A DNA stretch of 17,423 nt from Pseudobacteriovorax sp. (GTDB lineage: Bacteria; Bdellovibrionota_B; Oligoflexia; Oligoflexales; Oligoflexaceae), in the NCBI GenBank assembly GCA_050293845.1, contig JBNKNM010000110.1, positions 1 to 17,423 of the forward strand, read 5' to 3'. The translations under genes were made by a program, and so were the position numbers. Below, piece by piece: positions 1 through 17,423 of this stretch (its first letter is position 1; the number at the start of each line of letters is the position of its first letter). The notes below the pieces were generated by a model that worked only from the letters and a program-made list of their open reading frames with translations, had not been told where the DNA came from and made no database searches.

Positions 1-3000
1 AACGCTCAGTTTACAGCTAACGAGTCCTTAGACAGCTCCTTTTACTTTGAATTTAATGAGGCTAATACTGGCTTTTTGAAAAGTATTGATAACGGTCAGG
101 GCCTTACTCATACATTTGTCTACGAAAGAATTGCGCCTGCAATAGGCCAGATCCACCGACCAGTAGTCCTTGCCTCTATGAAAACTCACAGCCAGGGAGA
201 GGGCCAAAAAGAGATATTCTTTAACTACAACAAGCCAAATTTCAGTGCGAAGAATCAAAGACTCCTTGGATTTAATGCGGTTGTTAGTGAGACCAATAAT
301 GGCACCATAAGTCAGTCAAATGAAGTCAATGAAGATCGCAGGCTAAAGGTGATAAAAAAAGATATTTTTGATAAGGTTTCAACCACCACCAGCACTATAG
401 AGTATTCTTATGCAAATATAGCCTTTGATAGTCTTAGCTTTGAGCTAATGCATAATGAAAAAGCTTACTTCAGTAAGGGTGGGGATAAGAGCTTTTCGAC
501 AACAAAGTCCCTCAGCTATGACGGCATTTGTGCTAGTACAGCCAAGAACATCTTTGAAGATTCATCTTTAACCATAAGTAAAAAATATTTTGACCATAGG
601 GACTGGACTGACTACCCCCACTGCCTTGATTCCGAAGTCATCTGGTCAGGCAGTCATCAAGACGCTTCTTTAGACTTTGCACATCACATTAAAAAACTAA
701 GAAATTCCCAAGGACAAGTTGAAAACTTATTATTAAAAGTAGGAACTGGGGAACATTTAGCCCAAGTGATGGGATATGACGCTACATCGTCAAGGCTTTC
801 TGATATTAAAAATGCAGACGGCTCTACCTTTCACTTTGACTATGATAATAATTTTGAATACTTGCGTAGTGTGAATAAGAATAACCTCTCACAACTAGAA
901 AGCCATAGCTATGACCAAGTATTGGATCGTGTGTTAACAATGCGCACTGCTAGAGGTAACCAGTATTATTCAGAAACATTTGGATTTGACCATCTGGGGC
1001 GCTTAGTTGAAAGTTCCGACAGTATGAATACATCATCTTCGCCGGTTACAAAATATAGCTACAGGTTTGGATCACAACTAATGCCTGCATTTGTACGCTC
1101 TCAGACCCTTTTTAACTCCTCATATGAGGACGAGATCCTGCTGACCAGCCCAACATCTAACTCTGCAACAAGCTTAAAAAAAGGAGCATCGGGCTACTAT
1201 CTGGCAAGCAGAAAGACTAAGAATATTAATACCCTCAAGGAGGAGATAAAAGTTTCCGATAAGATTTTTTCTGATCCCTTTTCTTTGCAGCATATTTCAG
1301 ACTACGAAGATCGAAATGTTACTCAAAACTGGCCTACGAAGCTGTTCCCCGTGAGTAAATCACAAACAAATTGGCATAGTAATATTGAGGAAAACCTTGA
1401 TGTTTCTTATAATATTGCAGGCGACTACTTAAGTAGGACGGAGCAGACAAACTCTTCATTTACGAAAAATTGGCTTACGAATTCACACAATAAGCCGGCC
1501 TACTACCTCGACGAGCATCAAAACTTATACCAATACAAATATGACGCATTAGGCCGTCTACGAAGGATTGTTTTACCTTCTGGAACGAACCAAACCGTTG
1601 ACTATAATAACTATGGTGAGGTGGTGAAAATTTCTCGTGATCAGGTGGGCTCAATTACTTTCACCTACGATGAAACGACAAGACTTCTTAGGGAAAAATC
1701 CTTTTTTGATGTTAACGGTGATTTAGATAGGCTGGAATCCTTCAGTTACGATTCCTATGGCCGCATTGATAGCATTAATTACCTCAAGGGCCAAGACAGC
1801 ATCAGCCATAATTATTTTTATGATGGCAGGAACACAAAAAATCCCAACCAAGTTAATGGACAACAGGACTTTCTTACTGCTGTTGCCGGGAAGGATTTTG
1901 AAAAAAGATTTGTCTTTTATCCTGATGGTAGCATGAAAGAAAATGAGCTTTGGATAGAGAATGTCCTTAGTCTCACAGAAACAATGTCCTATTATCCAAA
2001 CCATAGTCTCAAATCTCATAATGTTATTGATCATGTGAATGGCTACAGCTACGAACTAGCATACCGATATAACGATCTTGGTCAGTTATCAGATTTTAAC
2101 GTTGCTGGAACTCAGTTAACAGTACTTTATGATGATTATGGCCGCTTATGGTCCGTAAAAAGTATTGATGGTCAAGGCTACGAATTTTTTTATGATGCCT
2201 ATACTAAAGCTAAGGACGGTTTTAATGCTGATAAGAAAAGCTATTCGTGGCGATTTAATAGGCGTGGTTTAGTAGAATCTGAAAATTTCGAACTAAACCT
2301 CAGTGAAAATACTAGAAACTATAGCTATGATAATCGTGGCTTTTTGGAATTATCACAAGATAAATACTCTACGTTTAACTATAGCTATAACCATGATGGA
2401 CTTCCAACAAGTTTTAATGAGAGATTACCAGAGGCCAATTTTAAAACTGATACTTCGGGTAGAGTAGTTTCAATAGACAATAGAACATTTGAATACGGCT
2501 CCATGGGTAGGTTACGAAAGGTTTTAACGGATAAAGAAGTCCTTGAGGATTATGTTTACGATGAAAATCGTTATTTGTTATTCAAAAAGAACAAAGCTGG
2601 AATCAGGACTATCTTTGCGGGGCCTATTGTTATTTCTGAGGTAGAGGGAACTTGGCATAAGATTACAGTTCAGGGCCAGGTAATCGGTTTCATACAAAAT
2701 GGCGTTTTTAGTTTTGGATTCTTCGATCAGAGAGGAACCAAACTAGAAGCCATTAGCGATCAGCAGATTACACCTTTTGGGTATGCAAGTAACAGCAAAG
2801 ACAATTTTTTTCAATATACTGGTCAAAGCACACATTTTTCTTCTGGGCTAGTGAGTATGGGAAAAAGGTTTTATGCTCCTAAAATTGGTAGGTTTACTAC
2901 TCCTGATCCATTGTTTCTTAGTTCTCCTGATGGTTGTGTTGAGAGTCCTATTGAATGTGGGCTATTTTCATATGCCAAAAACAACCCCATAACTTATACT

Positions 3001-3624
3001 GATCCGTCAGGAACTATAGCTGACGATAGTATCGGTCCGCTTAGTAAGCCATTTGAAAATCAGGAAGAAGCTGCTGCATATCGTCATAATATGGGCGCAT
3101 TTATGACTATAGCTGCAGATACTATGGAAGATTTAAAGCCACTTCCTGATCTATTAGGGCTTGGAGCTCTATTAAGACATTCAGGAAGAACTCTTTTAAA
3201 ATCTTCTATTAATGCAACGGAGGAACTGTCTAGTGCTTCAACTTCAAAAATAGTAAATTTTGCTAAATCGCTTCAAGGTGGAGATCTATACACAGGTGTA
3301 GACAAATTTAGAGAAATTACATTAAAAAAAGGGACTGTTATTTTTGGCGGTACACCAGGTCAATCAAATTTCTACACAACAGCAAAAGCGCTTCAAAACT
3401 CAAGCTACAATGCAAAGGAACTTTTTCAAGGATTGCAGGTCGCTAGTCATAAAGACTTTGGATTTAGACCTGGCATGACAGCATATAGAGTTAAGGAAAA
3501 TACTTCAGCGGCTTTTGGAAGAGCTTTAGAAAATCAAAGATTTGGTGAGGGTGGGTTTCCACAGATAGTAATTAAAGATTATGAAAAATATCTAGAGCCA
3601 ATTTATTCAGTTAGATTAGATTAG
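1..3624 (+). CDS. Rhs/YD-repeat polymorphic toxin, 5'-truncated, with C-terminal toxin domain
   Basis: Frame 1 has no stop from base 1 (NAQFTANES...), so the true start lies upstream of the window. Many YD repeats (YKYDALGRL, YDSYGRI, YDDYGRL, YDNRG). Rhs core motifs RFYAPKIGRFTTPDP and YAKNNPITYTDPSG (DPSG at 3001-3012), followed by a ~200-aa variable tail. Confidence 0.95.
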   Translation, partial: NAQFTANESLDSSFYFEFNEANTGFLKSIDNGQGLTHTFVYERIAPAIGQIHRPVVLASMKTHSQGEGQKEIFFNYNKPNFSAKNQRLLGFNAVVSETNNGTISQSNEVNEDRRLKVIKKDIFDKVSTTTSTIEYSYANIAFDSLSFELMHNEKAYFSKGGDKSFSTTKSLSYDGICASTAKNIFEDSSLTISKKYFDHRDWTDYPHCLDSEVIWSGSHQDASLDFAHHIKKLRNSQGQVENLLLKVGTGEHLAQVMGYDATSSRLSDIKNADGSTFHFDYDNNFEYLRSVNKNNLSQLESHSYDQVLDRVLTMRTARGNQYYSETFGFDHLGRLVESSDSMNTSSSPVTKYSYRFGSQLMPAFVRSQTLFNSSYEDEILLTSPTSNSATSLKKGASGYYLASRKTKNINTLKEEIKVSDKIFSDPFSLQHISDYEDRNVTQNWPTKLFPVSKSQTNWHSNIEENLDVSYNIAGDYLSRTEQTNSSFTKNWLTNSHNKPAYYLDEHQNLYQYKYDALGRLRRIVLPSGTNQTVDYNNYGEVVKISRDQVGSITFTYDETTRLLREKSFFDVNGDLDRLESFSYDSYGRIDSINYLKGQDSISHNYFYDGRNTKNPNQVNGQQDFLTAVAGKDFEKRFVFYPDGSMKENELWIENVLSLTETMSYYPNHSLKSHNVIDHVNGYSYELAYRYNDLGQLSDFNVAGTQLTVLYDDYGRLWSVKSIDGQGYEFFYDAYTKAKDGFNADKKSYSWRFNRRGLVESENFELNLSENTRNYSYDNRGFLELSQDKYSTFNYSYNHDGLPTSFNERLPEANFKTDTSGRVVSIDNRTFEYGSMGRLRKVLTDKEVLEDYVYDENRYLLFKKNKAGIRTIFAGPIVISEVEGTWHKITVQGQVIGFIQNGVFSFGFFDQRGTKLEAISDQQITPFGYASNSKDNFFQYTGQSTHFSSGLVSMGKRFYAPKIGRFTTPDPLFLSSPDGCVESPIECGLFSYAKNNPITYTDPSGTIADDSIGPLSKPFENQEEAAAYRHNMGAFMTIAADTMEDLKPLPDLLGLGALLRHSGRTLLKSSINATEELSSASTSKIVNFAKSLQGGDLYTGVDKFREITLKKGTVIFGGTPGQSNFYTTAKALQNSSYNAKELFQGLQVASHKDFGFRPGMTAYRVKENTSAAFGRALENQRFGEGGFPQIVIKDYEKYLEPIYSVRLD

Positions 3625-3630
3625 ATTAGA
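3611..3630 (+). repeat. (TTAGA)x4 tandem repeat across the Rhs stop codon
   Basis: Read directly: ttaga ttaga ttaga ttaga. Confidence 0.9.
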
Positions 3631-3638
3631 AGGGAATT

Positions 3639-4052
3639 ATGATTTCGATACCGATAAATGAAGAAATTTCCATTTCATCAGAACTTTCTGAACAAGAATT
3701 TTTGAACTCTGAATTTGGTCAACATTCTGATAGAGGAGCTAATGACAAAGATAAAATTCACTTTTACTCGACAAAAAGATTTTCTCTTTTTGGAATAAAG
3801 GTTTCATGTAACATTTTATTTAGTAATGGAAAGATCTACTACTGCCAGTTTATTCCTTATATAGAAGGGGCATCTTGGTCTAATCTATGTACAGAACAAA
3901 CGAATTCTACTTTAGAAATATTGAAAGAAAAATTGGAACAGCAATTCTCCATTTCTATTCCATACAAATCAAAAACAGAAAGAATTTATCTACATCATGA
4001 ACAAAAGGATTGGACGCGATCATTAGCAATACAATTTCAAAATAGTCTTTAG
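3639..4052 (+). CDS. Putative cognate immunity protein of the Rhs toxin (137 aa)
   Basis: Small ORF 14 bp downstream of the toxin stop, same strand, with an AAGGGA RBS-like site. This is the canonical toxin-immunity arrangement; function is inferred from position. Confidence 0.7.
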   Translation: MISIPINEEISISSELSEQEFLNSEFGQHSDRGANDKDKIHFYSTKRFSLFGIKVSCNILFSNGKIYYCQFIPYIEGASWSNLCTEQTNSTLEILKEKLEQQFSISIPYKSKTERIYLHHEQKDWTRSLAIQFQNSL

Positions 4053-4147
4053 ATGGCCAAAAGTTTAAAATTTAGTATTCAACAAAAACATCTAAAATGA
4101 AGTCCGAAAAGGGAAATAGTAGGAAGCCCTCAAAAGTACTAGGCTAC

Positions 4148-4585
4148 TTATTTCCCATCTTCTTCCGCGATTTCTTTTTCTACTTCTAGATCAAGCTCTT
4201 TCTTAGCTTCATCAGACAGATAAGATGCATAGATCCCAACTATACTCCTCATAAAAAACTCACCGACAGCGGGTTGAATTGTAGCTAAGGCTTTTTTCCA
4301 CTTTTCATATTTTTGCTCTACTGAATCGTTAGGAGCTACCAGAACAGCAATATAAGAGCATCCTTCTCTAAATTCAGGGTAATAGCCAAAATCTTCTTCA
4401 CTTACGAATTTCGGTTTCAAGGTTCCCTGTAGATAAGCCCCTAGTTTTTTTTCCGCATTAATATCATTTGAATCAAAGAAAACGGCGCTTAACTTCGCAA
4501 TTATTTTTTTAGCATGTCTAGGTGACTTAAACAAATTTTTGGGAAAGATAAAATCAGGAGAGGGGTATATTCTATCGTCTGGCAT
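4148..4585 (-). CDS. Hypothetical protein (~145 aa)
   Basis: Long ORF; the ATG at 4585 is preceded by GGAG and is preferred over the TTG at 4597. No recognisable motif. Confidence 0.65.
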   Translation of the reverse strand: MPDDRIYPSPDFIFPKNLFKSPRHAKKIIAKLSAVFFDSNDINAEKKLGAYLQGTLKPKFVSEEDFGYYPEFREGCSYIAVLVAPNDSVEQKYEKWKKALATIQPAVGEFFMRSIVGIYASYLSDEAKKELDLEVEKEIAEEDGK

Positions 4586-4666
4586 ATGTAACTCCAAGAA
4601 GGCGTACTTTTGTCTAGATTTTACAAGAATAGCGTAGATTTAGCTAGTGTCAAATGATACCTAAAC

Positions 4667-5089
4667 TTATAACTTTATCTGTTTTAGCTTTTTAGCACAA
4701 TAAATGAGATACATTTTTTCATTTTCATCTAGGTACTTATCCAGACGCTTCCATTCTACATCAGATTCCCTGGTATAGTCTCTCAGGCAATACTTCATAA
4801 AATCTTCTAATAATTGCTTAGGTGGCCTTTGAGTTATCAATAAGATAGTTTTAACAACTTGCTTTGCCGTTAGCTTATGGCCATAGATAATACCGTTCAT
4901 CCTTTTCAAGGAAAAAATTTTTGCCAGCCGTTCGTTATTACCCCTCAACGATAACTCTCTTAAGAGATCAATCAACACATTTATTATCATAGTGCTACCG
5001 ACTAACTGGATTTGGCTCTGTTCATCAAGAATACACCTAACTTCAACTACTAGCTTTGATAGCAAGTTTTGAAAATCAGAATCATTCAA
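4667..5089 (-). CDS. Hypothetical protein (140 aa)
   Basis: TTG start preceded by GGAGG; helical-looking sequence with no recognisable family. Confidence 0.65.
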   Translation of the reverse strand: MNDSDFQNLLSKLVVEVRCILDEQSQIQLVGSTMIINVLIDLLRELSLRGNNERLAKIFSLKRMNGIIYGHKLTAKQVVKTILLITQRPPKQLLEDFMKYCLRDYTRESDVEWKRLDKYLDENEKMYLIYCAKKLKQIKL

Positions 5090-5147
5090 AGGAAATCCTC
5101 CGAGATAGAGTGATCAATCAATGTAAATGATATATGAGAATACAAGT

Positions 5148-5453
5148 CTATTTAGTAAATTTTCGGCTTTCAAGATTGCCTGTAAATATATTCAACTTTA
5201 GTTCAAAGCCGTTCCATGTTTTGCATACAACCTTATCTCTCACTATCTTAAAGCCAACAAATGTATCCGATTTCGAGGTTAATTCTGTTTCCCATAATTT
5301 ATTAGAATTCACATCTACAGCATAAATTCTTGACATTCCTTCGAGACACTCTCGAATCAGAATAATTTTAAATTCCTCTGTCTGAGCTATCATTGAATTA
5401 GGATAAGATTTTTCCATTTCATTCATCCTTAGTATCATCCTATTTTCTAGCAC
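5148..5453 (-). CDS. Small beta-rich protein, possible orphan immunity protein
   Basis: GTG start with GAGGTG RBS. The pattern IYAVD..N.LWE...TWNGFE..LN..TG..ESRKFTK resembles small proteins recalled from positions next to polymorphic toxins (not searched). Confidence 0.6.
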   Translation of the reverse strand: MLENRMILRMNEMEKSYPNSMIAQTEEFKIILIRECLEGMSRIYAVDVNSNKLWETELTSKSDTFVGFKIVRDKVVCKTWNGFELKLNIFTGNLESRKFTK

Positions 5454-5614
5454 CTAAACACCTCACTATCAATGCCAAAAAAAAATAATAATTGTACTAT
5501 TAGTGTAATCTTTATATGACATTGCGCACTTGCTACTCATTTTATTATTTAAAGTTTTAAACTTGAAAATAAGCATGAATCGGCAATATATTATGTTTAC
5601 TTCATGATCATCAA

Positions 5615-6205
5615 TTGCACTATTGGTGTAAAATAGAAAGGATAGTGACTTTGTATTTCATAAATATCAACGATATTAATACTAAAAAAATAAACGAGGG
5701 AAAGCGATACGATTTTGGAGATGGCCCTGAGATGGTTCTTGCGGTTTCAGTACTTAAAAACCAAGATCGAATATGGATTAAGACTGAGAAAAGGGAGCTG
5801 CTATATAGATGTAGTGGTGAAATCATTGGGTCAGCCGACTACGTAAAGAGAGTAATAATAGCAGAAGACGATCCTGAATTATCCGCAACCCTTCATCACT
5901 TGATTGGCTTGTTTGAAACCTGTTTTATTCCGCATGTAGTTAGCAATGGTCTAGATGCATTAAACCTTTTTCATGAAGTAGGAGCAAACTTAATCGTGAC
6001 GGACCATATAATGCCTATACTTAATGGAGAATCTTTAATAGAAATCATAAGAGCAACTAACGTAAAAGTTCCCATAATCCTAATTTCAGTTGATAAAGAG
6101 ACTGTTCACAAGTTTAATGATCGGTTAGATTCCAATCTATACTGCCTATTAAAACCGTTTAAAACCACTGAATTAGAAAAGATTGTAGAAGGTATTTTTA
6201 TATGA
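5615..6205 (+). CDS. Response regulator receiver (REC) protein with N-terminal extension; start uncertain
   Basis: REC motifs IIAEDD, IVTDHIMP (phosphoacceptor Asp), ILIS and LLKPF. A possible alternative GTG start lies at 5645. Confidence 0.85.
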   Translation: MHYWCKIERIVTLYFININDINTKKINEGKRYDFGDGPEMVLAVSVLKNQDRIWIKTEKRELLYRCSGEIIGSADYVKRVIIAEDDPELSATLHHLIGLFETCFIPHVVSNGLDALNLFHEVGANLIVTDHIMPILNGESLIEIIRATNVKVPIILISVDKETVHKFNDRLDSNLYCLLKPFKTTELEKIVEGIFI

Positions 6206-6438
6206 AAGAAAAAATCATAGAATTTTTGAGTATTCATAACTTCTCACAAAGGGAGTCAGAAATATTTCGAGAAATTTTGTTGGGTGAATCGACAGACGCA
6301 AAAACAATCGCCAAAAAGTTTGGAATAAGCGCAAATACCGTCAGGATTCATTGCAAGAATATAAATTCTAGACTGGGAACTGATAGTAAGTCAAACGCTA
6401 TGCAAATATTTATTAGATATCTGAATCATAGTATTTGA
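6202..6438 (+). CDS. Stand-alone LuxR/GerE-type HTH regulator
   Basis: FSQRESEIF...KTIAKKFGISANTVRIHCKNINSRLG is a LuxR C-terminal HTH signature; ATGA overlap with the REC gene. Confidence 0.9.
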   Translation: MKEKIIEFLSIHNFSQRESEIFREILLGESTDAKTIAKKFGISANTVRIHCKNINSRLGTDSKSNAMQIFIRYLNHSI

Positions 6439-6470
6439 CGGGTGTTTAGGCTCTCGTCATAACAACTGCA

Positions 6471-6992
6471 TTAGTCAGAAGGGGGATTTCTTTTAAAATT
6501 TAATTGCTCAATTGTTTTTTGAATTTCCGAATCTATATAGTCTGAAGGGTTGATTTTTTCAAGATTCTCAAGAAACTTTTTATAGTCCGCTTTATTAGGC
6601 TTAATTCCAATAAGAGTAGAAATATCTTCAACCAACATCCTAAGTCCAATTTCGGTCATCGGGATCTTCTTAAAGTTAAAATTAGTTGGAAACTTTACCG
6701 CTTTCTCTTCTCTCATTAAAAGAAAACATGCTGAATTTATGTTTCTTTTATCTATTAATATATTGAACAATTCTGAGGGTGTTTTTTGCGGATTTAACAT
6801 AACATATATATCTGCTTGATAAAAAATGATCACACTCGAAATCATTTCGGCCAATGCCTTTGTACTCCCGGTACCTGCTTCGAGATGATTAAAAAGCGAG
6901 CTATTAAATACTTTACTAAAAAATGAGCTTATCTCAAAAGCTATACTGAGGTCATCCAGCTCGCTTAGAATAAAAGTATTTTTATGCTGCAT
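6471..6992 (-). CDS. Hypothetical protein (173 aa)
   Basis: Long ORF with GGAG upstream of the ATG; no recognised motif. Confidence 0.65.
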   Translation of the reverse strand: MQHKNTFILSELDDLSIAFEISSFFSKVFNSSLFNHLEAGTGSTKALAEMISSVIIFYQADIYVMLNPQKTPSELFNILIDKRNINSACFLLMREEKAVKFPTNFNFKKIPMTEIGLRMLVEDISTLIGIKPNKADYKKFLENLEKINPSDYIDSEIQKTIEQLNFKRNPPSD

Positions 6993-7177
6993 CTGAATTG
7001 CTCCGTTTAAATGATTTTGCGCACTGTTATGACACTATAATGACATAAAACACGATATTATATTGCACAAAATAATCCAACTCTTTCTATTTTTAACTGT
7101 CCTAATGCGTAGTATTTTAATCTGATTGAATAAATTGAACGGTGGTTTAATTTATTTACAATTTGGATATTCCTACA

Positions 7178-7726
7178 TTATTCGTTTGATCTATCGTATT
7201 TATGTATCCAATCAGCCATATAATCCTCATCACTTAGCCGAGGTTCGATGCAATATCTATTATACGCAAAGCCGTGTAAAAGACAAAACAGCTCTACTCT
7301 ATACTCAGAGGGTTTATGATAGCCGCATTCCCATTTATTCCAGGTTGACCAAGAAGCTCCTGGGATCATCTTAGCTGCTTCTGCTACCGTTAATCCTGCG
7401 CGTTTTCGCATAGCTTTAACTCGCTTTCTATAAAAATCTACTTGTAGGTCGTTTAATGGTATTGGACGCCCTCCTCTTCTAAAACGTTTTATACCCTTGT
7501 TTTCGAGATTATATTCGTCGAAATTTAACCCAGCCTTCAGACAAACAATATATATGATGGTGTCGTCAATTCTTGTTTCACCATGCTTCCAACGATACCA
7601 GCTAGCTTTGGCAGTATAAGGAAGAAAATCCTTAAGAAATTCGGTCGAAACTGAGTGACCACACTTTATTTCCAAAGTCGATAGTGTTTCAAAAATGATG
7701 TTTTTCTCATTTTTTGTCAATTCCAT
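7178..7726 (-). CDS. XRE/Cro (KorC-like) transcriptional regulator, apparently with two tandem HTH units
   Basis: C-terminal VKAMRKRAGLTVAEAAKMIPGASWSTWNKWECG..PS..VELFCLLHG. The N-terminal KASWYRWKHGETRIDD...IVCLKAG looks like a second unit. GAGGG RBS. Confidence 0.8.
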   Translation of the reverse strand: MELTKNEKNIIFETLSTLEIKCGHSVSTEFLKDFLPYTAKASWYRWKHGETRIDDTIIYIVCLKAGLNFDEYNLENKGIKRFRRGGRPIPLNDLQVDFYRKRVKAMRKRAGLTVAEAAKMIPGASWSTWNKWECGYHKPSEYRVELFCLLHGFAYNRYCIEPRLSDEDYMADWIHKYDRSNE

Positions 7727-7791
7727 TAAGCTATCCCTCTAATGACTACTAACAATTCAAGAAGATGCAAAAATAATTCATTCTATAAATA

Positions 7792-7925
7792 ATCCGTATT
7801 ATATCCTTGACGGTACCCATGGGTCCCGCTAATAAAATAAAGTCTCAACCGCAAAGGGCAAATAGCCTAGGTAGCAAAGGAGAGAACACAGGTTAAATTT
7901 CCGGGGAGATCCGATCTTTTTTTTA
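7792..7925 (+). repeat. ~135-bp repeat, copy 1 (promoter plus putative sRNA), inverted relative to 10189-10324
   Basis: Manual alignment to the reverse complement of 10189-10324: near-identical 5' block, diverged ~25-nt middle, a 36-nt identical block (7878-7913), then a T-run. Confidence 0.95.
7807..7835 (+). promoter_or_regulatory. sigma70-like promoter P1 with palindromic operator
   Basis: TTGACG-17 bp-TAATAA. GGTACCCATGGGTCCC (7812-7827) covers the spacer and is one mismatch from a perfect palindrome. Confidence 0.65.
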
Positions 7926-8102
7926 AAAGGCACACATACCTCGATGTCATATTAAAATATACGAAATATCATTCCTAGACATACTAAGATTCATCAATTA
8001 TTCATGAAACTATTTTACCACCTCCTTTGCATGTATAAAATATAGAATATAACACGAATTTTATCAACAAAAATAAAGATAATAATACGGACTATTTTTT
8101 AT

Positions 8103-8131
8103 TTGACGGTACCATCGTATCCCGCTAACTT
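8103..8131 (+). promoter_or_regulatory. sigma70-like promoter P3, third member of the same promoter family
   Basis: TTGACG-17 bp-TAACTT, sharing TTGACGGTACC....TCCCGCTAA with P1 and P2; it lies upstream of the DUF3560 operon. Confidence 0.7.
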
Positions 8132-8194
8132 CTAATTATCGGTTAGGGAAAAGTCCTTCTCTAAAAGAAAAATCAAAAAACAAGGAGAGTTATA

Positions 8195-8339
8195 ATGTTC
8201 CATTAAAGGAATACGGGTTTTTAACTTAATACATGCAACAATGTGGGACGATGCACAGCGAGACTGGGTTAATGGGTTAGTAGAATCTCTAAGCGAAGAT
8301 AATCCCGATTGGGATTTTGAATACCGCAAAACTAAGTAA
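8195..8339 (+). pseudogene. Frameshifted small ORF (about 47 aa if repaired)
   Basis: Strong RBS AAGGAG then ATG TTC CAT TAA. Removing one base joins the ATG to the open frame IKGIRVFNLIHATMWDDAQRDWVNGLVESLSEDNPDWDFEYRKTK*. Confidence 0.45.
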
Positions 8340-8379
8340 ACCAACAATCAATTATAGATAGAATTAAGGAGGCCAAAAA

Positions 8380-8688
8380 ATGGTCAATGGGAAAGTGCGT
8401 TCAAAGGATGACATAGTAAAATTAGCGGAAGCCTTAAAGCAATCAGTCTCTAACTACCTTTGGTTTAAATCATATTATAGTAAGTATCCAAGCGAATATG
8501 CCACTCATAAGCTAAAGGAATCAGAAGATAGAATTATCTTAATTTTAGGTTCCTGGTACAGTGATATCAATCTAAAAATGACCACCCGAAGACGTGAACT
8601 TGTAATTGATATTCATCTTAACCTAGTAGCTAAAAAATCTCTGCAAACGATCTATATCACTCCGCAGGAATTACAGAAAAAAATATAG
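8380..8688 (+). CDS. Hypothetical protein (102 aa)
   Basis: AAGGAGG RBS before the ATG; intact ORF. Confidence 0.8.
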   Translation: MVNGKVRSKDDIVKLAEALKQSVSNYLWFKSYYSKYPSEYATHKLKESEDRIILILGSWYSDINLKMTTRRRELVIDIHLNLVAKKSLQTIYITPQELQKKI

Positions 8689-8699
8689 GAAATTTTTTC

Positions 8700-8807
8700 A
8701 TGACAACAAGTATAGATGATCAAAAATCAATTTTTAGTGAGATAGGGCAAGAAGTAAAAAAGATAATCGTTAAACTAAAAATAAAGAGATGGGGTGAGTT
8801 AAATTAA
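8700..8807 (+). CDS. Micropeptide A (35 aa) MTTSIDDQKSIFSEIGQEVKKIIVKLKIKRWGELN
   Basis: AGGA RBS; ungapped similarity to the 9735-9833 peptide (13/29 identical) with synonymous codon differences. Confidence 0.7.
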   Translation: MTTSIDDQKSIFSEIGQEVKKIIVKLKIKRWGELN

Positions 8808-8862
8808 ATCATTTAGTAACAACAATTTTATTTCCACATAAGTATCAAGGAAGAAAACTATC

Positions 8863-9663
8863 ATGAATTATTATGAAGAAAAAAAAGAAGCCAAAAAAGA
8901 ACGATACACGCGTTACGCTAAAAATGCACAATCAAGAAGTGATGCCGCTTGTGAGAAAGCTAAACAAATTAGTAGCTATATACCTTTTGGGCAGCCGATA
9001 CTAGTGGGCCATCACTCAGAAAAACGTCATAGAGCCGATATAAATCGAATTGATAATAATATGCGAAAGTCGGTAAAAGAGCAAGAAAAGTCAGACTATT
9101 GGACAAACAGAGCTGAGGCAGTTGATAGCGATTATCAAATAAACTCAGACGATCCTGAGGCAATTACTAAGTTAGAGGCAAAAGTAAAAAATTTGTTAGA
9201 TTCAAATGAAAAGAGCAAGGCTTTCAATAAAAGACTGGCGAAATGGAAAACCTGGGAAAATTTAAAATGTAGTGAAGAAAAAGACTTAATAGCCTATGTG
9301 GAAAGAAAACGTAAATACTACGCTTTACCTCCTGACTCCTTAAGATGTTATTACCTTGATACTTCTAGGAATACTCAAGAAGTGAGACGATTGAAAGGTA
9401 GAATTTCTGGACTAAAAAAAGCTGATACATTTCAACCCTATTCAGTTGGTGGTATAAATGTAAGGTTAGAAGAGGGTCAGATAAGGATATACTTCCCAGG
9501 TAAGCCCAATGAGGAAATTAGAACAGTACTAAAGAAAACATTTAACTTTAAATTTAGCAGATGGTCAATCGCATGGGTACGAAAATTTACACCGTCCACA
9601 TCCGGATATTTTTTAAAAGAATTGCGCGAATATATAGAAAGCCTAGATGATAAGTGTATTTGA
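8863..9663 (+). CDS. DUF3560 domain protein (associated with plasmid/ICE leading regions)
   Basis: Hallmark IPFGQPILVGHHSEKRHR and INSDDPEAI.KL motifs; C-terminal IYFPGKPNEEIR..LK...FKFS....AW segment; AAGGA RBS. Confidence 0.9.
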   Translation: MNYYEEKKEAKKERYTRYAKNAQSRSDAACEKAKQISSYIPFGQPILVGHHSEKRHRADINRIDNNMRKSVKEQEKSDYWTNRAEAVDSDYQINSDDPEAITKLEAKVKNLLDSNEKSKAFNKRLAKWKTWENLKCSEEKDLIAYVERKRKYYALPPDSLRCYYLDTSRNTQEVRRLKGRISGLKKADTFQPYSVGGINVRLEEGQIRIYFPGKPNEEIRTVLKKTFNFKFSRWSIAWVRKFTPSTSGYFLKELREYIESLDDKCI

Positions 9664-9734
9664 GAATAAAGATGCTACTCATATATTCATAACATAACAC
9701 TAGCAAGCAATTTAGTATAATGGAGTTTTTTAAT

Positions 9735-9833
9735 ATGACAGCTAAACTCAGCAATCAAATGTTATTATTTCAAGAAGTGAAAGAGGATGTGAAAAAGGAA
9801 GTAATCAAGCTTAAAATTAAGGTTAAACAATAG
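9735..9833 (+). CDS. Micropeptide B (32 aa) MTAKLSNQMLLFQEVKEDVKKEVIKLKIKVKQ
   Basis: GGAG RBS; paralogous to the 8700-8807 peptide. Confidence 0.7.
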   Translation: MTAKLSNQMLLFQEVKEDVKKEVIKLKIKVKQ

Positions 9834-9850
9834 GGCTTTCTGGCCCTTTT
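9832..9850 (+). terminator. Short intrinsic-terminator-like hairpin
   Basis: AGGGC-tttctg-GCCCT followed by T residues, right at the micropeptide B stop. Confidence 0.4.
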
Positions 9851-9864
9851 ATAGGAGATAAAAG

Positions 9865-9951
9865 ATGACATTTTCCGGAACAAATTATAAAGGTGACATG
9901 AACCTCAAGGAAATTGCTAAAAGAGTTCGACAAGAAATAAAAGCGGCGTGA
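9865..9951 (+). pseudogene. Truncated ORF resembling the N-terminus of polyvalent-protein-associated (LPD29-like) proteins
   Basis: AGGAG RBS; MTFSGTNYKGDMNLKEIAKRVRQEIKAA* stops after 28 aa. The G.NY...L.KEIAKRVR..IK pattern is recalled from such proteins (not searched). Confidence 0.4.
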
Positions 9952-10021
9952 AGAAAGGTCGAGGATTCTAGCTGAAAAAGAAAAGGTGTTAAATGGATCT
10001 TTCGATTGATCAATAATTTTC

Positions 10022-10055
10022 TGAGTATCTCAGTTTTACTAAATTGAGATGCTCA
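10022..10055 (+). terminator. 15-bp hairpin, probable terminator or processing structure at the end of the + operon
   Basis: TGAGTATCTCAGTTT-tact-AAATTGAGATGCTCA; both non-Watson-Crick pairs are G-U on the + strand. Confidence 0.55.
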
Positions 10056-10188
10056 TGCTTTAAGGATAGTATTTAATTAATCACTTAGGAGAATGATATG
10101 TTGAACACCAGTTAATTTGATTTTTATATGAGCCTTACGGCAAGCTTTTTTAAATGACCCATGTGGTCGCCGAGAAGTGCGCGCTCCA

Positions 10189-10324
10189 TAAAAAAAAGAG
10201 CGGATCTCCCCGGAAATTTAACCTGTGTTCTCTCCTGTGCAAAATCCAAGTTATTTACTTTTAGCGGTTGAGACATTATTTTTTTAGCGGGACCCATAGG
10301 TACCGTCAAGGATATATTTCGGAT
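10189..10324 (-). repeat. ~135-bp repeat, copy 2 (promoter P2 at 10281-10309 plus putative sRNA)
   Basis: The reverse complement reads CTTGACGGTACCTATGGGTCCCGCTAAAAAAATAATGTCTCAACCGC...AGGAGAGAACACAGGTTAAATTTCCGGGGAGATCCGCTCTTTTTTTT, matching copy 1. Confidence 0.95.
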
Positions 10325-10335
10325 CTATATTAACG

Positions 10336-10569
10336 TTAGCTAAATCTTATGAAAGTTGAAAGTATACCTGCTTTAGAGACTACACCTACTTTACCATTAA
10401 TATTTTTTACATGAATACGTATTGTATTAGTAGAAATTCCAAGTAAATCTGCTAAAGCCTTCGCACTAACGGTACCCGAAATCATTTCAGAGAGTACCGT
10501 TGTTTCCCTTTTACTCAATCCATATTCCTCAGAAAATTTATCTATTTTTGAAACAATTTGTTCAGTCAT
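10336..10569 (-). CDS. Stand-alone LuxR/GerE-type HTH regulator (paralog of 6202-6438)
   Basis: LSKRETTVL...KALADLLGISTNTIRIHVKNINGKVG; AAGGAG RBS. Confidence 0.9.
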   Translation of the reverse strand: MTEQIVSKIDKFSEEYGLSKRETTVLSEMISGTVSAKALADLLGISTNTIRIHVKNINGKVGVVSKAGILSTFIRFS

Positions 10570-10788
10570 CTTCGTCTCCTTTCAAACATTTCGCCTTTTA
10601 TTAGCAAACCCTTTTGGCTAAGTCAATATGAATTACTCTATTTCTACAATTTTGTTCAACATTTTTATGATACTAATGATCCTAAAAAGACCGTTTCATC
10701 ATAAAAATACGGATTGATATTCTCGTTATAGCCATGAAATAATACGTTTGGCATAATTCTCTTTCTTACTTGCACAGGGCGAGAGGTC

Positions 10789-10902
10789 ATGAAAGTAAAG
10801 CTTAAAATTAAGCCTCAAAAGCCTTTAGCGATTGACCCTCTTACCCTTATTGATATTGCCAAGGCCATTGACCTGAGCAAGAAAAAGGCGAAGAAGGGGT
10901 AA
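10789..10902 (+). CDS. Micropeptide C (37 aa) MKVKLKIKPQKPLAIDPLTLIDIAKAIDLSKKKAKKG
   Basis: GAGAGG just upstream of the ATG; shares KLKIK with peptides A and B and the 15-nt AAGCTTAAAATTAAG with B. Confidence 0.55.
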   Translation: MKVKLKIKPQKPLAIDPLTLIDIAKAIDLSKKKAKKG

Positions 10903-11359
10903 TAAGATCGACTCGCAGCATGGTTCTCCACAAAAAAGTGGAAAACCAAATTAGTCATAGTTGTATTCCTCTTTCATACATATCTTATTGAAATCATAAG
11001 CTCGGCGCAGAATTGCGCCCAGTGGTTTAATTGTTAACTGCGACATATTTTACTGAAGGAAAATTTTCCCTGAGTGCCCCATCGATACAACGACCCAGAA
11101 AATTCTCTAACTATTTATGGTTTAGTAGGGGTACCAAATAGAACTTCCAATGAATAAAGCATATTACAAAATTCTCTTCTAAACCTGTTGACTATTAGGC
11201 AAGCATTATGTTTTCCTAGGTCTGAACCTCAGGATTCAAAGCCTGAATGGAGTTGAAGAACAACTGAGGTTCACTCTTCACTGCTGAGTGGCGATACTTC
11301 TAAAATGCGTTTCTAAAAACTGAATATTTTTATTGGTCATTGCAAAATAGGAGCATCTA

Positions 11360-12547
11360 ATGACTGAATTTTCTAATGAGTCACTATCAGTGATTCTGGG
11401 CCTTAATGATGGTGATCTTAAGCACCGAGCTGACTGCACATTGAAAGCTTTCGATGAAGCGTCAAAAATCGTTACTGAATGTCTTGATCAAGTTAGATTT
11501 AGACTCAAACAAGCGCATGATGATAACGAATTTATCCGCGATGTATGGGAACTAACCTATTATGATGAGCTGAATTTCGAGTCGAGCAAGTCTACGTCTC
11601 ATGCTATTACTTTTGACTTGGAAAAAAAGAATTTTTTTGCAAAGCCGAGGTCCTGGTGTGGGCTTCCCGATAATCCACACCTAAAATATGATCATGTACT
11701 ACATGAACGAGAGTATCACATCGGAGAACTACCTCTAAAGCTAAAGGCGTTTGCGGTTAATGGACTGTGGAGTTATCTTGGAGATGTCTTACCCACTTCA
11801 GTTTTTAAAAGTAAGCTCGTAGATAGGGCCAATGAGATGCTAGATAAGGTGGAATTCAATAAGCCTCCACTTTCTAATTCTACAAGCTTTTCGATGTTGA
11901 AAAGTCAAATGGAACATCTTTTCGAAACTGGAAAGTTAAATGTTGAATGCTTTGAAGATACCGAGGAGGTCTTACCAAGAAGTCTAAACATTTTTAAAAA
12001 TATTTCACAGGCAAACGAACAACTTACTACCAATGAGCCCAACCTTAATAAATTGGGACAGGCAGCTATTGATTTCGATTTTGAGCTTGAGCTAATGGTT
12101 GCCAACAAAATTGAACTACTTTTTAATAAATACTCAGGATTGTTAGCCCAGGGTCAGTTTAATCTTGAAAAAATGTCAGTGCGGGCTAAGGACGGATTGA
12201 TTAAGATTCAGTCAACAGATGATGATGAATATAAACTTCCTGAGCAATTCACTAGCCATTTTAAGATTTTAGTAAAAAAGCTGAACAGTGGAAAGGTGGA
12301 CTACATAGTCGGGTCTTTTTTAAACGAGATCGCTGACAGAGTCCGTAAGTGCAGCTATGACTTTGATGACGATGAGGAAGAAGCCAAGAACCCTACAATC
12401 TTATATGTCCTCAATGAAGAGAAGGAGGTTGTTGAAAAAGCAATCGAGTTGGCAAAGGATCAAAATGTCATTGATCAAATTGCTGATCAAGGTCTTGCAA
12501 TTGGTCAATTCATGGCAGATTTTAGTCGAGCTGTCTTAGCGCGATAA
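11360..12547 (+). CDS. Hypothetical acidic protein (395 aa), no recognisable family
   Basis: Long ORF with AGGAG RBS. Confidence 0.85.
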   Translation: MTEFSNESLSVILGLNDGDLKHRADCTLKAFDEASKIVTECLDQVRFRLKQAHDDNEFIRDVWELTYYDELNFESSKSTSHAITFDLEKKNFFAKPRSWCGLPDNPHLKYDHVLHEREYHIGELPLKLKAFAVNGLWSYLGDVLPTSVFKSKLVDRANEMLDKVEFNKPPLSNSTSFSMLKSQMEHLFETGKLNVECFEDTEEVLPRSLNIFKNISQANEQLTTNEPNLNKLGQAAIDFDFELELMVANKIELLFNKYSGLLAQGQFNLEKMSVRAKDGLIKIQSTDDDEYKLPEQFTSHFKILVKKLNSGKVDYIVGSFLNEIADRVRKCSYDFDDDEEEAKNPTILYVLNEEKEVVEKAIELAKDQNVIDQIADQGLAIGQFMADFSRAVLAR

Positions 12548-12600
12548 CCTAATTCGCCATTGTCCCTCGCAATAAATACTGCTAATTGTATTAAAGTATA

Positions 12601-12694
12601 CCTGGGTGCAAAAGCAGGCCCTTCGTTGGTCAGCCTCGGCGAAGTTAGCATGCTTAGCCCCTGGTTCGATCTTTTCCAGGTGAGCAGGCTCAGG
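12601..12694 (+). other. GC-rich multi-branch (cloverleaf-like) structured element
   Basis: Pairings 12601-07/12688-94, 12621-28/12637-44, 12651-56/12681-86 and 12660-64/12676-80; the wobble pairs are G-U on the + strand. Confidence 0.45.
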
Positions 12695-12768
12695 AAAATG
12701 TAAACATTTTTAATCAATGATTTCAGCATGTTTACCTGTAAACATTGTAAACGGTCCAGAGTAACGGT
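12695..12768. repeat. Cluster of GTAAAC motifs in both orientations
   Basis: TGTAAACAT 12699, ATGTTTAC 12728, TGTAAACAT 12737, TGTAAAC 12746 and a degenerate GTAACGGT 12761. Confidence 0.7.
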
Positions 12769-12919
12769 GTCATTGGTAATAGGAAAAAAATGATACTATG
12801 TCGAGATTCATAACGAAATCAGAATTAGACCGCGTTGCAACAGTACAGTTGAAGTCTTCGATTGGAAGACGTTATTTTTCCATAGCGTTTATTTTTCTAT
12901 TTGGGAGCACCAATAATAT

Positions 12920-13060
12920 TTACTGGTCCGGCAGCTCCTCTAGCTCGATATCAACCATGTCCAGCAGCACCCTTTGAAGCTCCTTGTTATCTGTATGGCT
13001 TTCTAGTTGTTGTTTGATGCCCTCAATTATGCCCCAGTCGCGTTCGGTAATTTCCATCAT
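12920..13060 (-). CDS. Small acidic protein (46 aa) MMEITERDWGIIEGIKQQLESHTDNKELQRVLLDMVDIELEELPDQ
   Basis: AAGGAG RBS (the second ATG at 13057 is better spaced); divergent from the SRAP gene; below the ORF-track cutoff. Confidence 0.6.
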   Translation of the reverse strand: MMEITERDWGIIEGIKQQLESHTDNKELQRVLLDMVDIELEELPDQ

Positions 13061-13148
13061 ATGCTCCTTTTTAGTTGGAGCTTGGTTTTATGGCTAGTGG
13101 TGAATCATTGCCAGTGACATCTTGTAAAAATCGCACAGGAGATAAAAA

Positions 13149-13928
13149 ATGTGTTTTTCTGTGTATGTCAGACAAGACTTCGAAAATTTAGAAATAGAAT
13201 ACGATGCCGATACCAATTTTGGCAAATGGAATAGGTTAATCGTCACACAGGCAAAGCTTCCAGACGAAGATAGTAGAATTTTCGCTAATTATTATGCACC
13301 TGTGATCACTTACATTGACAATAAAAAAGTTATCGAACCGATGCGCTATAGCTGCTATTCACCGAGCTATATGACTGAAGCACAAGTAAAAAAACTTTCA
13401 ACATTTAACGCGCGTCGAGATTCTCTACAAAAAAGATTTTGGTCTGAAGCATTCGGAGTAAACCACGGAATCATAGTACTGAAAGGATTCTACGAATGGG
13501 TCGCCGTTAAAGATCTAGTGAAAACAGGTGTTGTTACTATTGATCAAATAAGAGCCAAATTTGAACAGGAATCCGAGGAAAGAAAACAAAAAATTCTTAG
13601 CCAAGGTAAAAAATATGCTCCTACGAAAACTGAGTTAAAAGATCCCATATTTCGAAACATCATAATTGAGTTTAGACCAGATATTAGCGAGGATCTTGTT
13701 GTACCTGTTATCTATAACACAAATAAGGAGGGGACAGATTATGGTTTTGCTATAATCACAGATGAGCCTACTCCTGAAATCCAAGCTGCTGGCCATGATC
13801 GAATGCCTATAAATCTTAGTCGGAATGCTATTGAGGATTGGTTGCATCCGCAAGGCAAATCCTTTGAACAAATTGATTTATTATTTGATGTGAAAGAGAA
13901 AGAAAAATTTTCATATAAAATTGCCTAA
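13149..13928 (+). CDS. SOS response-associated peptidase (SRAP, YedK/HMCES family; abasic-site processing)
   Basis: N-terminal Met-Cys, TFNARRDSL, GFYEW (Glu) and GHDRMPI (His); adjacent to umuDC. Confidence 0.92.
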   Translation: MCFSVYVRQDFENLEIEYDADTNFGKWNRLIVTQAKLPDEDSRIFANYYAPVITYIDNKKVIEPMRYSCYSPSYMTEAQVKKLSTFNARRDSLQKRFWSEAFGVNHGIIVLKGFYEWVAVKDLVKTGVVTIDQIRAKFEQESEERKQKILSQGKKYAPTKTELKDPIFRNIIIEFRPDISEDLVVPVIYNTNKEGTDYGFAIITDEPTPEIQAAGHDRMPINLSRNAIEDWLHPQGKSFEQIDLLFDVKEKEKFSYKIA

Positions 13929-15193
13929 CTACATTTCACAATCAGAAGATCTTCCCATTTTGTCGTGTAGTAAGGGGAATGTAACTTACTAGCCATTTTC
14001 CAGCTTTGGTCCGTACCACAAGACCCAATACGAATCATATCTCGATAATAATTTCGATTAATTTCATCAATTGTAGTCATGATCTTTCGTTCCTTATCAT
14101 ACCTCACTGGATCGTCAAAAATGCCAAATTGAATTCGAGACATTGGACTGATATCGCTAAGCATTACTATTGCTTTTTTGTACTCTATTCCTTTTTTGAA
14201 AATAGCTTTCAAAGCCCTTAATCCAGCTTGAGTAAGGGCAATTGTGGAATTAGTGGCTGTAAGTAATTTAACAGTCGCAGGTCGAGAATAATACTGTCTG
14301 ACTTGCTTATGAGGGTTTGTGTGAATAATGACCGTTAGTGTTAGGCAAACACTGTTTTGCTGACGCAACTTTTCTGCTGCTCGTGTAACATACTGAGAAA
14401 CTGCTTCCTCCAAGTCTGCAAGGCTAAAAACAGGCCTGCCGAATGATCTGGAACTAATAATTTGCTTTTTGGCCACGACATCTTCAAGAGGAAGACATGA
14501 AACACCTTTAATTTCTTCTTGAATACGGTGACCAACAATCGTAAGAAGGCGCTGGACTAATGTCGGGTCCGCATCACGTAACTGGGAAGCAGTATAGATC
14601 CCGTAACTTTTAAGCTTCTCAGCCGATTTACTGCCGATTCCCCAGATGTCGCCCACTAGAAATTTCGAAAGAGCTTCTTCTCGGATATCAGGATCATATA
14701 GATTAAAAACTCCCGATTCTATTTTTGATTTTTTGGCAATTTTATTGGCGATCTTAGCGAGCACTTTAGTCGGTCCCAGGCCGATACAAGTCGGGATTCC
14801 TACCTCCTGCAAAACTGCTTTTCGAATTTTGCTTGCGTATTCATTAAAATCATCTGTAGGGCAGTTCTCTAATCGTAGAAAGGCTTCATCTATCGAGTAG
14901 ACTTCAAGATCCGGTGACCACTCACCGAGGATATTCATTACACGAGAGGAAATATCACCATAGAGCGTGTAATTGGAAGAAAACACGCTAATATTGTTTC
15001 TATGAATTACATCCTTGATATGGTGATATGGGGCTCCCATTTTAATTCCAATGGCTTTCGCTTCATCAGACCGAGAAATTGTACAACCATCGTTGTTACT
15101 GAGAACGATAACTGGTCTATTCTTAAGATCTGGTTTAAAAAGCCGCTCGCAAGATACATAGAAGGAGTTGCAGTCAACAAGGGCAAAAATCAT
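13925..15193 (-). CDS. umuC: Y-family DNA polymerase V catalytic subunit
   Basis: ALVDCNSFYVSCE, VLSNNDGC, FSSNYTLYGDIS, YSIDEAF, SRSFG and a C-terminal SP.YTT.W.DL motif. Confidence 0.97.
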   Translation of the reverse strand: MIFALVDCNSFYVSCERLFKPDLKNRPVIVLSNNDGCTISRSDEAKAIGIKMGAPYHHIKDVIHRNNISVFSSNYTLYGDISSRVMNILGEWSPDLEVYSIDEAFLRLENCPTDDFNEYASKIRKAVLQEVGIPTCIGLGPTKVLAKIANKIAKKSKIESGVFNLYDPDIREEALSKFLVGDIWGIGSKSAEKLKSYGIYTASQLRDADPTLVQRLLTIVGHRIQEEIKGVSCLPLEDVVAKKQIISSRSFGRPVFSLADLEEAVSQYVTRAAEKLRQQNSVCLTLTVIIHTNPHKQVRQYYSRPATVKLLTATNSTIALTQAGLRALKAIFKKGIEYKKAIVMLSDISPMSRIQFGIFDDPVRYDKERKIMTTIDEINRNYYRDMIRIGSCGTDQSWKMASKLHSPYYTTKWEDLLIVKCS

Positions 15194-15615
15194 TATTCTT
15201 GCCTATAGATGGAGAAAGTAACAACACCGAACAGTTCGAATTCTTGTTCGTCATCTATAAATATAGCAGGGAATGATTTATTTTCAGCTCGAAGCTCTAT
15301 TCTACTTCCAAAGCGAAAGTACCGCTTAACCACGAATTCTCCGTCAAGGATGGCAAGGACTATTGATCCATTCTTAGGTGTTAGGGAGCGATCAACTACC
15401 AGGATATCGCCATTATGGATATTTGCTCCGGTCATAGAGGTACCACTGGCTCTCACGAGAAATGTTGACGCAGGCTTCTTTATAATCAACTCGTTCAGAT
15501 CTAGGGGCTTCTGAAGGTAGTCAAAGGCTGGACTTGGAAAGCCGCAAGATACGGGGTTTTCATAAAATGGTAGTGATATCTTCGCCTTAATGCCAGGTTT
15601 CTGCAGGGTTTGCAT
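15193..15615 (-). CDS. umuD: DNA polymerase V subunit UmuD (S24 peptidase)
   Basis: VSCGFPSPA autocleavage site, GTSM (catalytic Ser) and FVVKR (catalytic Lys); 1-bp overlap with umuC. Confidence 0.95.
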   Translation of the reverse strand: MQTLQKPGIKAKISLPFYENPVSCGFPSPAFDYLQKPLDLNELIIKKPASTFLVRASGTSMTGANIHNGDILVVDRSLTPKNGSIVLAILDGEFVVKRYFRFGSRIELRAENKSFPAIFIDDEQEFELFGVVTFSIYRQE

Positions 15616-15627
15616 CGTGTCTCCTTA

Positions 15628-15670
15628 TACCATACATAATTATGGTAATTGGGTGGAGGCTTGGTGTCAA
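15628..15670 (-). promoter_or_regulatory. umuDC promoter with a palindromic operator over the -10
   Basis: TTGACA (15665-70)-17 bp-TACCAT (15642-47); inverted repeat TACCATA-N6-TATGGTA at 15628-15647. Confidence 0.7.
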
Positions 15671-15709
15671 TATTGGGTTTGGGTGAGGTATCTTGATACA
15701 ATTGCTATA

Positions 15710-17404: not shown

Positions 17405-17423
17405 CACTTTCCTTTAATTGACA

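Follow-up and report, generated by a model that had tools for sequence, protein, structure and literature searches.

Several clients of the bacterial sliding clamp DnaN, among them Pol II, Pol IV, UmuC, Hda and MutS, carry a QL[SD]LF-type motif, and in Hda the clamp motif lies within the first dozen residues. In typical acr-aca operons, the aca gene is co-directional with the genes that it follows and lies downstream of them. Among small proteins of mobile DNA, the prophage small-open-reading-frame protein YqaH is reported to act on DnaA (bioRxiv 10.1101/2020.11.18.388090) and MuC of phage Mu to use the beta clamp (PMC12867686). Here we analyzed two small open reading frames (ORFs), pepA and pepB, that flank a DUF3560 gene on the + strand of contig JBNKNM010000110.1 of Pseudobacteriovorax sp., positions 1 to 17,423 (the whole stretch of 17,423 nt is called the window). 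An initial annotation had described them as paralogous micropeptides with a beta-clamp-binding-like motif. Like YqaH and MuC, they would be small proteins of mobile DNA encoded by short ORFs inside operons, and a replication factor as target would suit the clamp idea of that annotation; however, the peptides have no sequence similarity to YqaH or MuC, whose partners are experimental whereas those of the peptides are proposed. The peptides share with the DnaN clients a Q-x-x-[LI]-F pentapeptide near one terminus, but their pentapeptides depart from the strict consensus and lie in a predicted helix rather than in a disordered tail. They also differ from these clients in comprising 32-35 aa in total, with no other domain, and in that their binding is only putative. 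In contrast to acr-aca operons, the Aca2_YdiL-like gene of the window is on the strand opposite to pepA and pepB.

Both ORFs were found at the positions first reported for them (Table 1), and the intervening gene does belong to DUF3560 (PF12083). The first start codon of the pepA frame is at 8700, and the Shine-Dalgarno sequence AGGA (8687-8690), 9 nt upstream, overlaps the TAG stop codon of the preceding gene, which we call ORF102. The ATG of pepB has the Shine-Dalgarno sequence GGAG (9722-9725), again at a distance of 9 nt. An in-frame ATG at 9720 would add five residues to pepB, and the alignment of the two peptides begins exactly at M1-T2, that is, at the pepB ATG at 9735. A public protein collection already contains the exact 32-aa sequence of pepB, taken from an NCBI record in which it was called as a gene, but lacks pepA. 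The description of the pair as unannotated is thus correct for pepA but not for pepB.

The two peptides align without gaps, with 13 of 29 residues identical and 21 of 29 positive (BLASTP E 2e-8, in a single pairwise comparison), and when pepA was compared with all six frames of the entire 6.68-Mb genome, it matched nothing other than itself and pepB (E 0.012). At the DNA level, identity at the first, second and third codon positions is 17, 22 and 11 of 29, respectively. When the flanks of the two ORFs were kept in register, 7-11 of 30 positions were identical, which is the random level; the flanks are unrelated. The 13 identical residues are encoded by the same codon in eight cases and by different codons in five; within KLKIK, three of the five codons (K25, L26 and I28) differ synonymously. 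In 20,000 permutations, the 37 base differences between the two ORFs were scattered randomly over pepA. None of these permutations reached the observed BLOSUM62 score of 73, only 0.44% reached 13 identities, and the frame remained open in only 21%. The other two frames of the DNA alignment contain stop codons in both copies, and a Nei-Gojobori count gave a saturated pS of 0.88 and a pN of 0.32. A low-depth variant seen in another run of the same study, 8726 A>G, is also synonymous (K9, AAA>AAG). Taken together, the codon-position pattern, the permutations and the saturated pS point to an old duplication after which selection maintained the encoded sequence. By these measures the two genes code for protein and are paralogues of long standing, each with its own Shine-Dalgarno sequence, and the level that is conserved is the amino-acid sequence, not the DNA. 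The gapless alignment, the synonymous codons of KLKIK and the protein-level selection put forward in the initial annotation were therefore all borne out.

One may ask whether the two ORFs are genes at all, or whether they belong to a DNA or RNA repeat in which one frame is open by coincidence. The region is A+T-rich, and short ORFs are common in such DNA; the public record has no call for pepA; and the support for coding comes from sequence rather than from expression. However, a repeated element does not account for third codon positions at the random level next to second positions conserved at 22 of 29, for a protein similarity that no permutation reached, or for unrelated flanks. Rfam had no match in the window, and the RNA folds around both ORFs were not significant when compared with shuffled sequences (z 1.09 for 8660-8760, 0.48 for 8760-8875, 1.47 for 9690-9790 and -0.30 for 9790-9880). 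A riboregulator is likewise disfavored, as there is no Rfam match and the folds are not better than those of shuffles. We consider it extremely improbable that the ORFs are not genes, and this explanation is already disfavored.

We found no relatives of the pair outside its own genome. A six-frame search of 60 relatives with a profile of the pair gave no credible match, the best non-self E-value being 0.0073. Among 131 genomes of the phylum (130 plus the genome itself), two matched at E <= 0.01, namely the genome itself and a partial match (E 0.0073) of 16 residues inside a 926-aa frame. A HMMER search of 1,835,955,588 representative proteins returned a single match, pepB itself, and the ESM Atlas gave no usable match to the peptides. 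Loci around related DUF3560 genes were collected with an alignment-based search, which gave 531 relatives, of which 80 were kept (a query with the single protein found none). The hidden Markov model (HMM) of the pair was compared with 9,861 six-frame segments, from these 80 foreign loci with 1.5-kb flanks and from the second DUF3560 copy of the genome, and its best E-value was 0.41; against 243 other proteins, with the three peptide translations excluded, it was 0.4. Pfam gave only two sub-threshold chance matches (E 0.029 and 0.046), and PHROGs, NCBIfam and PADLOC gave no match to the peptides. A back-translated F-x-E...VKK...KLKIK pattern was found in three metagenome contigs of the Joint Genome Institute (JGI) and in none of its viral contigs. 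The metagenome matches are attributed to chance, because all three contain the same 24-aa frame, which stops within the pattern. As judged by these searches, pepA and pepB are an orphan, lineage-restricted pair. The statement that no family like this has been described agrees with the absence of a family match in Pfam, PHROGs, NCBIfam, PADLOC, the ESM Atlas and 1.84 billion proteins. As for the accompanying idea that homologues should conserve the glutamine and phenylalanine of the motif, together with KLKIK, the two copies are identical at Q8, F12 and KLKIK, and further homologues were not found.

The structure of the peptides was modeled with AlphaFold2 (AF2), using an alignment that consisted of pepA with pepB as its sole extra row. 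The pepA model is a single helix from residue 5 to residue 34, with a predicted local confidence (pLDDT) of 92.3 and a value of 84 for the first 10-residue block. Positions 5, 12, 15, 19, 23 and 26 are hydrophobic in both copies and form a heptad-like seam that includes F12, and over residues 9-21 the local hydrophobic moment calculated for a helix is 0.5-0.69. The N-terminal halves have a net charge of -3 (pepA) and -1 (pepB), and the C-terminal halves of +5 in both. No transmembrane-length hydrophobic stretch (about 18-20 residues) was found in either peptide; uncharged hydrophobic runs are at most 3-4 residues long, and charges occur throughout. Each peptide is therefore predicted, at the level of a model, to be an alpha-helix of about 30 residues with a hydrophobic seam and a basic C-terminal half. 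The VKK...KLKIK part near the C-terminus accounts for eight of the 13 invariant residues. Within this pair of sequences, conservation is strongest in the lysine-rich C-terminal half, not in the Q-x-x-[IL]-F motif.

The peptide genes are part of a string of + strand genes: ORF102, pepA, the DUF3560 gene, pepB and a truncated ORF of 28 aa. The DUF3560 gene has a Shine-Dalgarno sequence of its own (AAGGAAG, 8847-8853, 9 nt upstream of the start). The AF2 model of its product (pLDDT 92.8) begins with a long helical hairpin; Foldseek gave no match to it in the PDB at E <= 0.001, and VIA wide gave only generic helical-hairpin matches to residues 1-92 (Z up to 9.7). The family is widespread (of 3,569 candidate proteins, 3,164 matched at E <= 0.001), and the nearest relative outside the genome is 46% identical. 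In the literature searched, DUF3560 is mentioned only incidentally. The second DUF3560 copy of the genome, on contig C25, is 63% identical and is not accompanied by the peptides. Because the peptides are absent from the 80 foreign loci as well as from the C25 copy, they are not general companions of DUF3560. On C25, the DUF3560 gene and two downstream ORFs seem to be bracketed by a different inverted repeat (approximately 1254-1358 on the + strand and 3209-3322 on the - strand), which was deduced because the same 34-37-aa translation occurs on both strands.

ORF102, the first long gene of the + strand operon, has no match in Pfam, PHROGs, PADLOC or NCBIfam, and it is present in the public protein collection. 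The ORF downstream of pepB stops abruptly and may be the truncated start of a longer gene. It may resemble the start of a polyvalent-protein domain; Pfam gave no match to it at E <= 10.

The arms of an inverted repeat, 2.26 kb apart, enclose the whole string. The arms are 87% identical (BLASTN), with repeat segments that are 88% and 96% complementary. A third copy of the repeat is on contig C337, and the similarity between the right arm and C337 (359-659) extends to about 300 nt. Neither a structured RNA nor an attC-like hairpin was indicated by the folds of the repeat (z 0.66 and 0.42) or by Rfam, which gave no match. In contigs of the same study, the flanks 8095-8173 and 10021-10190 enclose a different cargo of 1,394 nt, and the right-arm repeat (10157-10338) has a word depth of 56-71 compared with 9.4 in the unique part, i.e., 6-7 times higher. 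The alternative cargo and the high repeat depth suggest that the repeat-bracketed module is an exchangeable cassette, to which we assign no type. The DNA of the module was present in one of 26 genomes searched, which was the genome itself, and not in a genome of the same genus. The window, a stretch of accessory DNA, has a G+C content of 36%, lower than the 41% of the genome (6.68 Mb in 741 contigs). The DnaN encoded by this genome is 77% identical to that of a Pseudobacteriovorax MAG, and its other matches bear the names Oligoflexus or Oligoflexales, which places the host in the Oligoflexia. Two further details of this region were observed. Behind a GGAGA sequence, a remnant-like ATG TTC CAT TAA occurs at 8186-8197, at which other contigs continue with the start of a longer gene. 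In addition, the 300-nt repeat contains a mini-ORF of five codons, MLNTS, behind AGGAG, at 10098-10115 (+) and at approximately 430-450 of C337; its translation is kept in both copies despite the synonymous differences TTG/TTA, ACC/ACT and AGT/AGC.

The explanation that we regard as the best, and that we put forward tentatively, is that pepA and pepB, as part of an operon on a mobile cassette, encode genuine mini-proteins that are helical, are restricted to this lineage and work by binding a partner. They would be stand-alone cytoplasmic mini-proteins, in which the hydrophobic seam of the helix would be laid against a partner protein. This partner could come from the host or from the operon itself, or it could be a second copy of the peptide, paired antiparallel with acidic against basic half; the sliding clamp would be one candidate among several. 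The basic tail could in turn make contact with nucleic acid or with an acidic surface, and the peptides would be small modulators or adaptors brought in by the cassette. Several points weigh against this explanation. The family has two members in one genome and no wider set of homologues, so that conservation at the level of residues is weakly sampled; coding status, as noted above, was read from sequence and not from expression; and the mechanism is drawn solely from shape and context. Only two sequences underlie the helix model, and a helix is a frequent outcome when short peptides are modeled in isolation. Moreover, the last ten or so residues alternate between hydrophobic residues and lysine, where the strand-type moment (0.5-0.86) exceeds that of a helix, and the helical moment of the whole core was reached by 30-42% of shuffled sequences.

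Other functions can be proposed for the same two genes, among which the initial annotation had preferred binding to the clamp: Q8-x-x-[IL]11-F12 would dock in the hydrophobic cleft of DnaN, and the peptides would compete with, or recruit, clamp clients such as UmuC. Both peptides fit Q-x-x-[LI]-F (QKSIF and QMLLF), with Q8 and F12 invariant and a conservative I/L at position 11, and a polar stretch precedes the motif, which is close to the N-terminus. The umuDC genes are 4 kb away in the same window, and UmuC does contain the reported QFGIF, at residues 355-359 of 422, which makes the use of Q-x-x-I-F in this lineage plausible; this is presumably about where E. coli UmuC bears its clamp motif. 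However, the motif was chosen post hoc and is loose. It occurs in 1.75% of the 14,341 ATG ORFs of 28-40 aa in the genome, about 0.012 such motifs are expected per 31 residues of long ORFs, and since pepA and pepB are homologous, the shared motif counts as a single event. Neither QKSIF nor QMLLF satisfies the strict QL[SD]LF. Clamp-binding peptides bind in extended form, whereas this motif is inside the predicted helix; short peptides can, on the other hand, change conformation on binding. The conservation of F12 can be explained without the clamp, because F12 belongs to the hydrophobic seam, and most of the invariant residues are C-terminal. No LexA-type box like the palindrome upstream of umuD is near the module, and the peptides were not found with umuDC or DUF3560 elsewhere (in the relatives, the 80 foreign loci or the genomes of the phylum). 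A complex prediction with the host DnaN (49-sequence alignment) and the peptide (2-sequence alignment) scored 0.01 against a mark of 0.32 and weighs neither way. QKSIF and QMLLF as beta-clamp-binding motifs thus have no positive support and are neither shown nor refuted, and as a reading of these short sequences we hold it to be unlikely. We give still less credence to a more elaborate form, in which each peptide would act on the clamp with two parts, gripping DnaN by an N-terminal Q-x-x-[IL]-F hook similar to that of Hda and resting its lysine-rich helix on the DNA threaded through the ring, so that a cassette beside umuDC could hold, block or hand over the clamp during establishment or translesion synthesis.

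Alternatively, pepA and pepB may be translated leader ORFs acting in cis, whose translation, perhaps slowed at the lysine-rich end, would set the expression of DUF3560 (after pepA) or of the truncated 28-aa ORF (after pepB). Each is 31-55 nt upstream of a gene on the same strand, the strongest conservation is near the C-terminus, as is the best-conserved part of arrest peptides, and a small hairpin overlaps the stop codon of pepB. The scanner listed this hairpin (9847-9832) on the - strand only; it appears in the RNA fold of the region, although that fold is no better than those of shuffles. We find a leader role rather unlikely, as no alternative RNA structure joins either ORF to the downstream ribosome site, the downstream genes have good Shine-Dalgarno sites of their own, and conservative substitutions occur across all 29 residues and not merely at the end. 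Furthermore, 76 of the 80 foreign DUF3560 loci had sufficient upstream DNA for comparison, and in 33 of them an ATG ORF of 20-60 aa terminates close to where DUF3560 starts; only four of these ORFs are preceded by a Shine-Dalgarno-like site, and none of the ORFs resembles pepA or pepB. A frameshift fusion of pepA to DUF3560 was rejected because there is no overlap between the frames: the 273-aa open frame of DUF3560 starts about seven codons before its ATG, and pepA already stops at 8807. Likewise, a frameshift at A AAA AAG (V19-K21) would lead in the -1 frame to stop codons within 5-8 codons. If the products are instead directed at the host as anti-defence inhibitors (anti-restriction or anti-CRISPR-like) under the control of the Aca2/YdiL-like helix-turn-helix (HTH) protein, one would expect small, orphan, fast-evolving proteins on a mobile cassette, such as are seen here, and the divergent neighbor has an Aca2_YdiL/HTH_31 domain. 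Yet about 650 nt separate the HTH gene from the module's first + strand gene, to which it is divergent, not co-directional and downstream; PADLOC and the other family libraries have no match for any gene of the module; the peptides, at 32-35 aa, are shorter than typical known inhibitors; and no defence system could be pinpointed as a target. Even with DUF3560 genes being frequent on plasmids (noted on about 1,000 of them in PMC6965323), an anti-defence role seems improbable to us. The net charges of +2 and +4 and the alternation of hydrophobic residues with lysine at the C-terminus (strand-type moment up to 0.86) might also suggest membrane-active cationic peptides, such as a type I-like toxin or a bacteriocin-like product. 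This is very unlikely, given that the peptides have neither a transmembrane-length stretch nor a signal or leader sequence, that their N-terminal half is acidic, that no antisense promoter or RNA stands out (14 promoter-like sites, 9.5 expected), and that Pfam, PADLOC and NCBIfam scans recognized no export or immunity genes in the module.

Control of the module by the SOS response was also considered and rejected, as nothing like the umuD palindrome is nearby. The latter is a perfect palindrome of 20 nt just upstream of umuD (15628-15647, TACCATACATAATTATGGTA) and is probably the LexA box of this lineage; we take it to be a CCAT-N8-ATGG variant of the CTGT-N8-ACAG type. In a scan for palindromes of this type, it was the only perfect match, and the other 10 of the 11 matches had three mismatches (8.4 matches expected). 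A scan for the Bdellovibrio-type box, TTACN3GTAA, gave six matches with one mismatch where 9.6 were expected. Elsewhere in the window, a receiver domain (5615-6205) and a GerE/LuxR HTH (6202-6438) are encoded by two ORFs with a 4-nt overlap, which look like a split or frameshifted NarL-type regulator.

Table 1. Positions of pepA, pepB and neighboring or related features. Coordinates refer to the window unless a contig name is given.
Feature	Position	Strand	Description
pepA	8700-8807	+	35 aa, stop codon within span; MTTSIDDQKSIFSEIGQEVKKIIVKLKIKRWGELN
pepB	9735-9833	+	32 aa, stop codon within span; MTAKLSNQMLLFQEVKEDVKKEVIKLKIKVKQ
DUF3560 gene	8863-9663	+	266 aa; PF12083, E 1.5e-41
ORF102	8380-8688	+	102 aa; AAGGAGG site upstream
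Truncated ORF	9865-9951	+	28 aa; AGGAG site
Hairpin	9832-9847	+	AGGGC-loop-GCCCT, then TTTTAT; 5-6 bp; overlaps pepB stop; + strand reading from sequence
Inverted repeat, left arm	7792-7925		about 134 nt
Inverted repeat, right arm	10189-10324
HTH protein gene	7178-7726	divergent from module	Aca2/YdiL-like domain, E 2.4e-5
Small LuxR/GerE gene	10336-10569
SRAP gene
umuC
umuD
HNH gene
RHS-repeat protein			at left end of window
Host dnaN	L021:694-1809	-
Second-family copy	C246:430-552
Second-family copy	C266:1124-1759
Second-family copy	C216:109-201
Second-family copy	C252:6636-6746	-
Second-family copy	C4:41193-41297
Second-family copy	C327:2890-2973	-

A third small ORF of the window (10789-10902, + strand, 37 aa, MKVKLKIKPQKPLAIDPLTLIDIAKAID...) belongs to a second family of lineage-restricted mini-proteins (MKKPLKLKIKKPLAIDPLTLLDIAKAID...), which has six more copies in the genome (Table 1) and four database proteins of 32-42 aa. 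One of the genomic copies continues in frame into an ORF of 212 aa and one is apparently frameshifted, and on contigs C110 and C246 the gene is divergent beside a small LuxR/GerE gene. Members of this family are similar to pepA and pepB in being 32-42 aa long, lysine-rich and lineage-restricted and in having KLKIK, and the copy in the window has an exact 15-nt stretch in common with pepB (9807-9821 = 10798-10812). However, KLKIK is N-terminal in the second family and near the C-terminus in pepA and pepB, and the remaining sequence is unrelated. The link between pepB and the second family may be due to chance, because the genome, translated in six frames, contains KLKIK 37 times.

Taken for what it is, the pair is an ordinary kind of object, an orphan small-protein family from an uncultured Oligoflexia lineage, and thus a line in a catalogue and not a new system. 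Should the peptides bind the clamp after all, they would, with their 32-35 residues, be among the smallest natural protein ligands of the clamp. More generally, very short genes can be shown to be real from a single genome by means of a paralogue pair with saturated synonymous sites. Mobile elements, for their part, are rich in small proteins that serve as inhibitors or adaptors of host machinery, and these proteins are still poorly charted.

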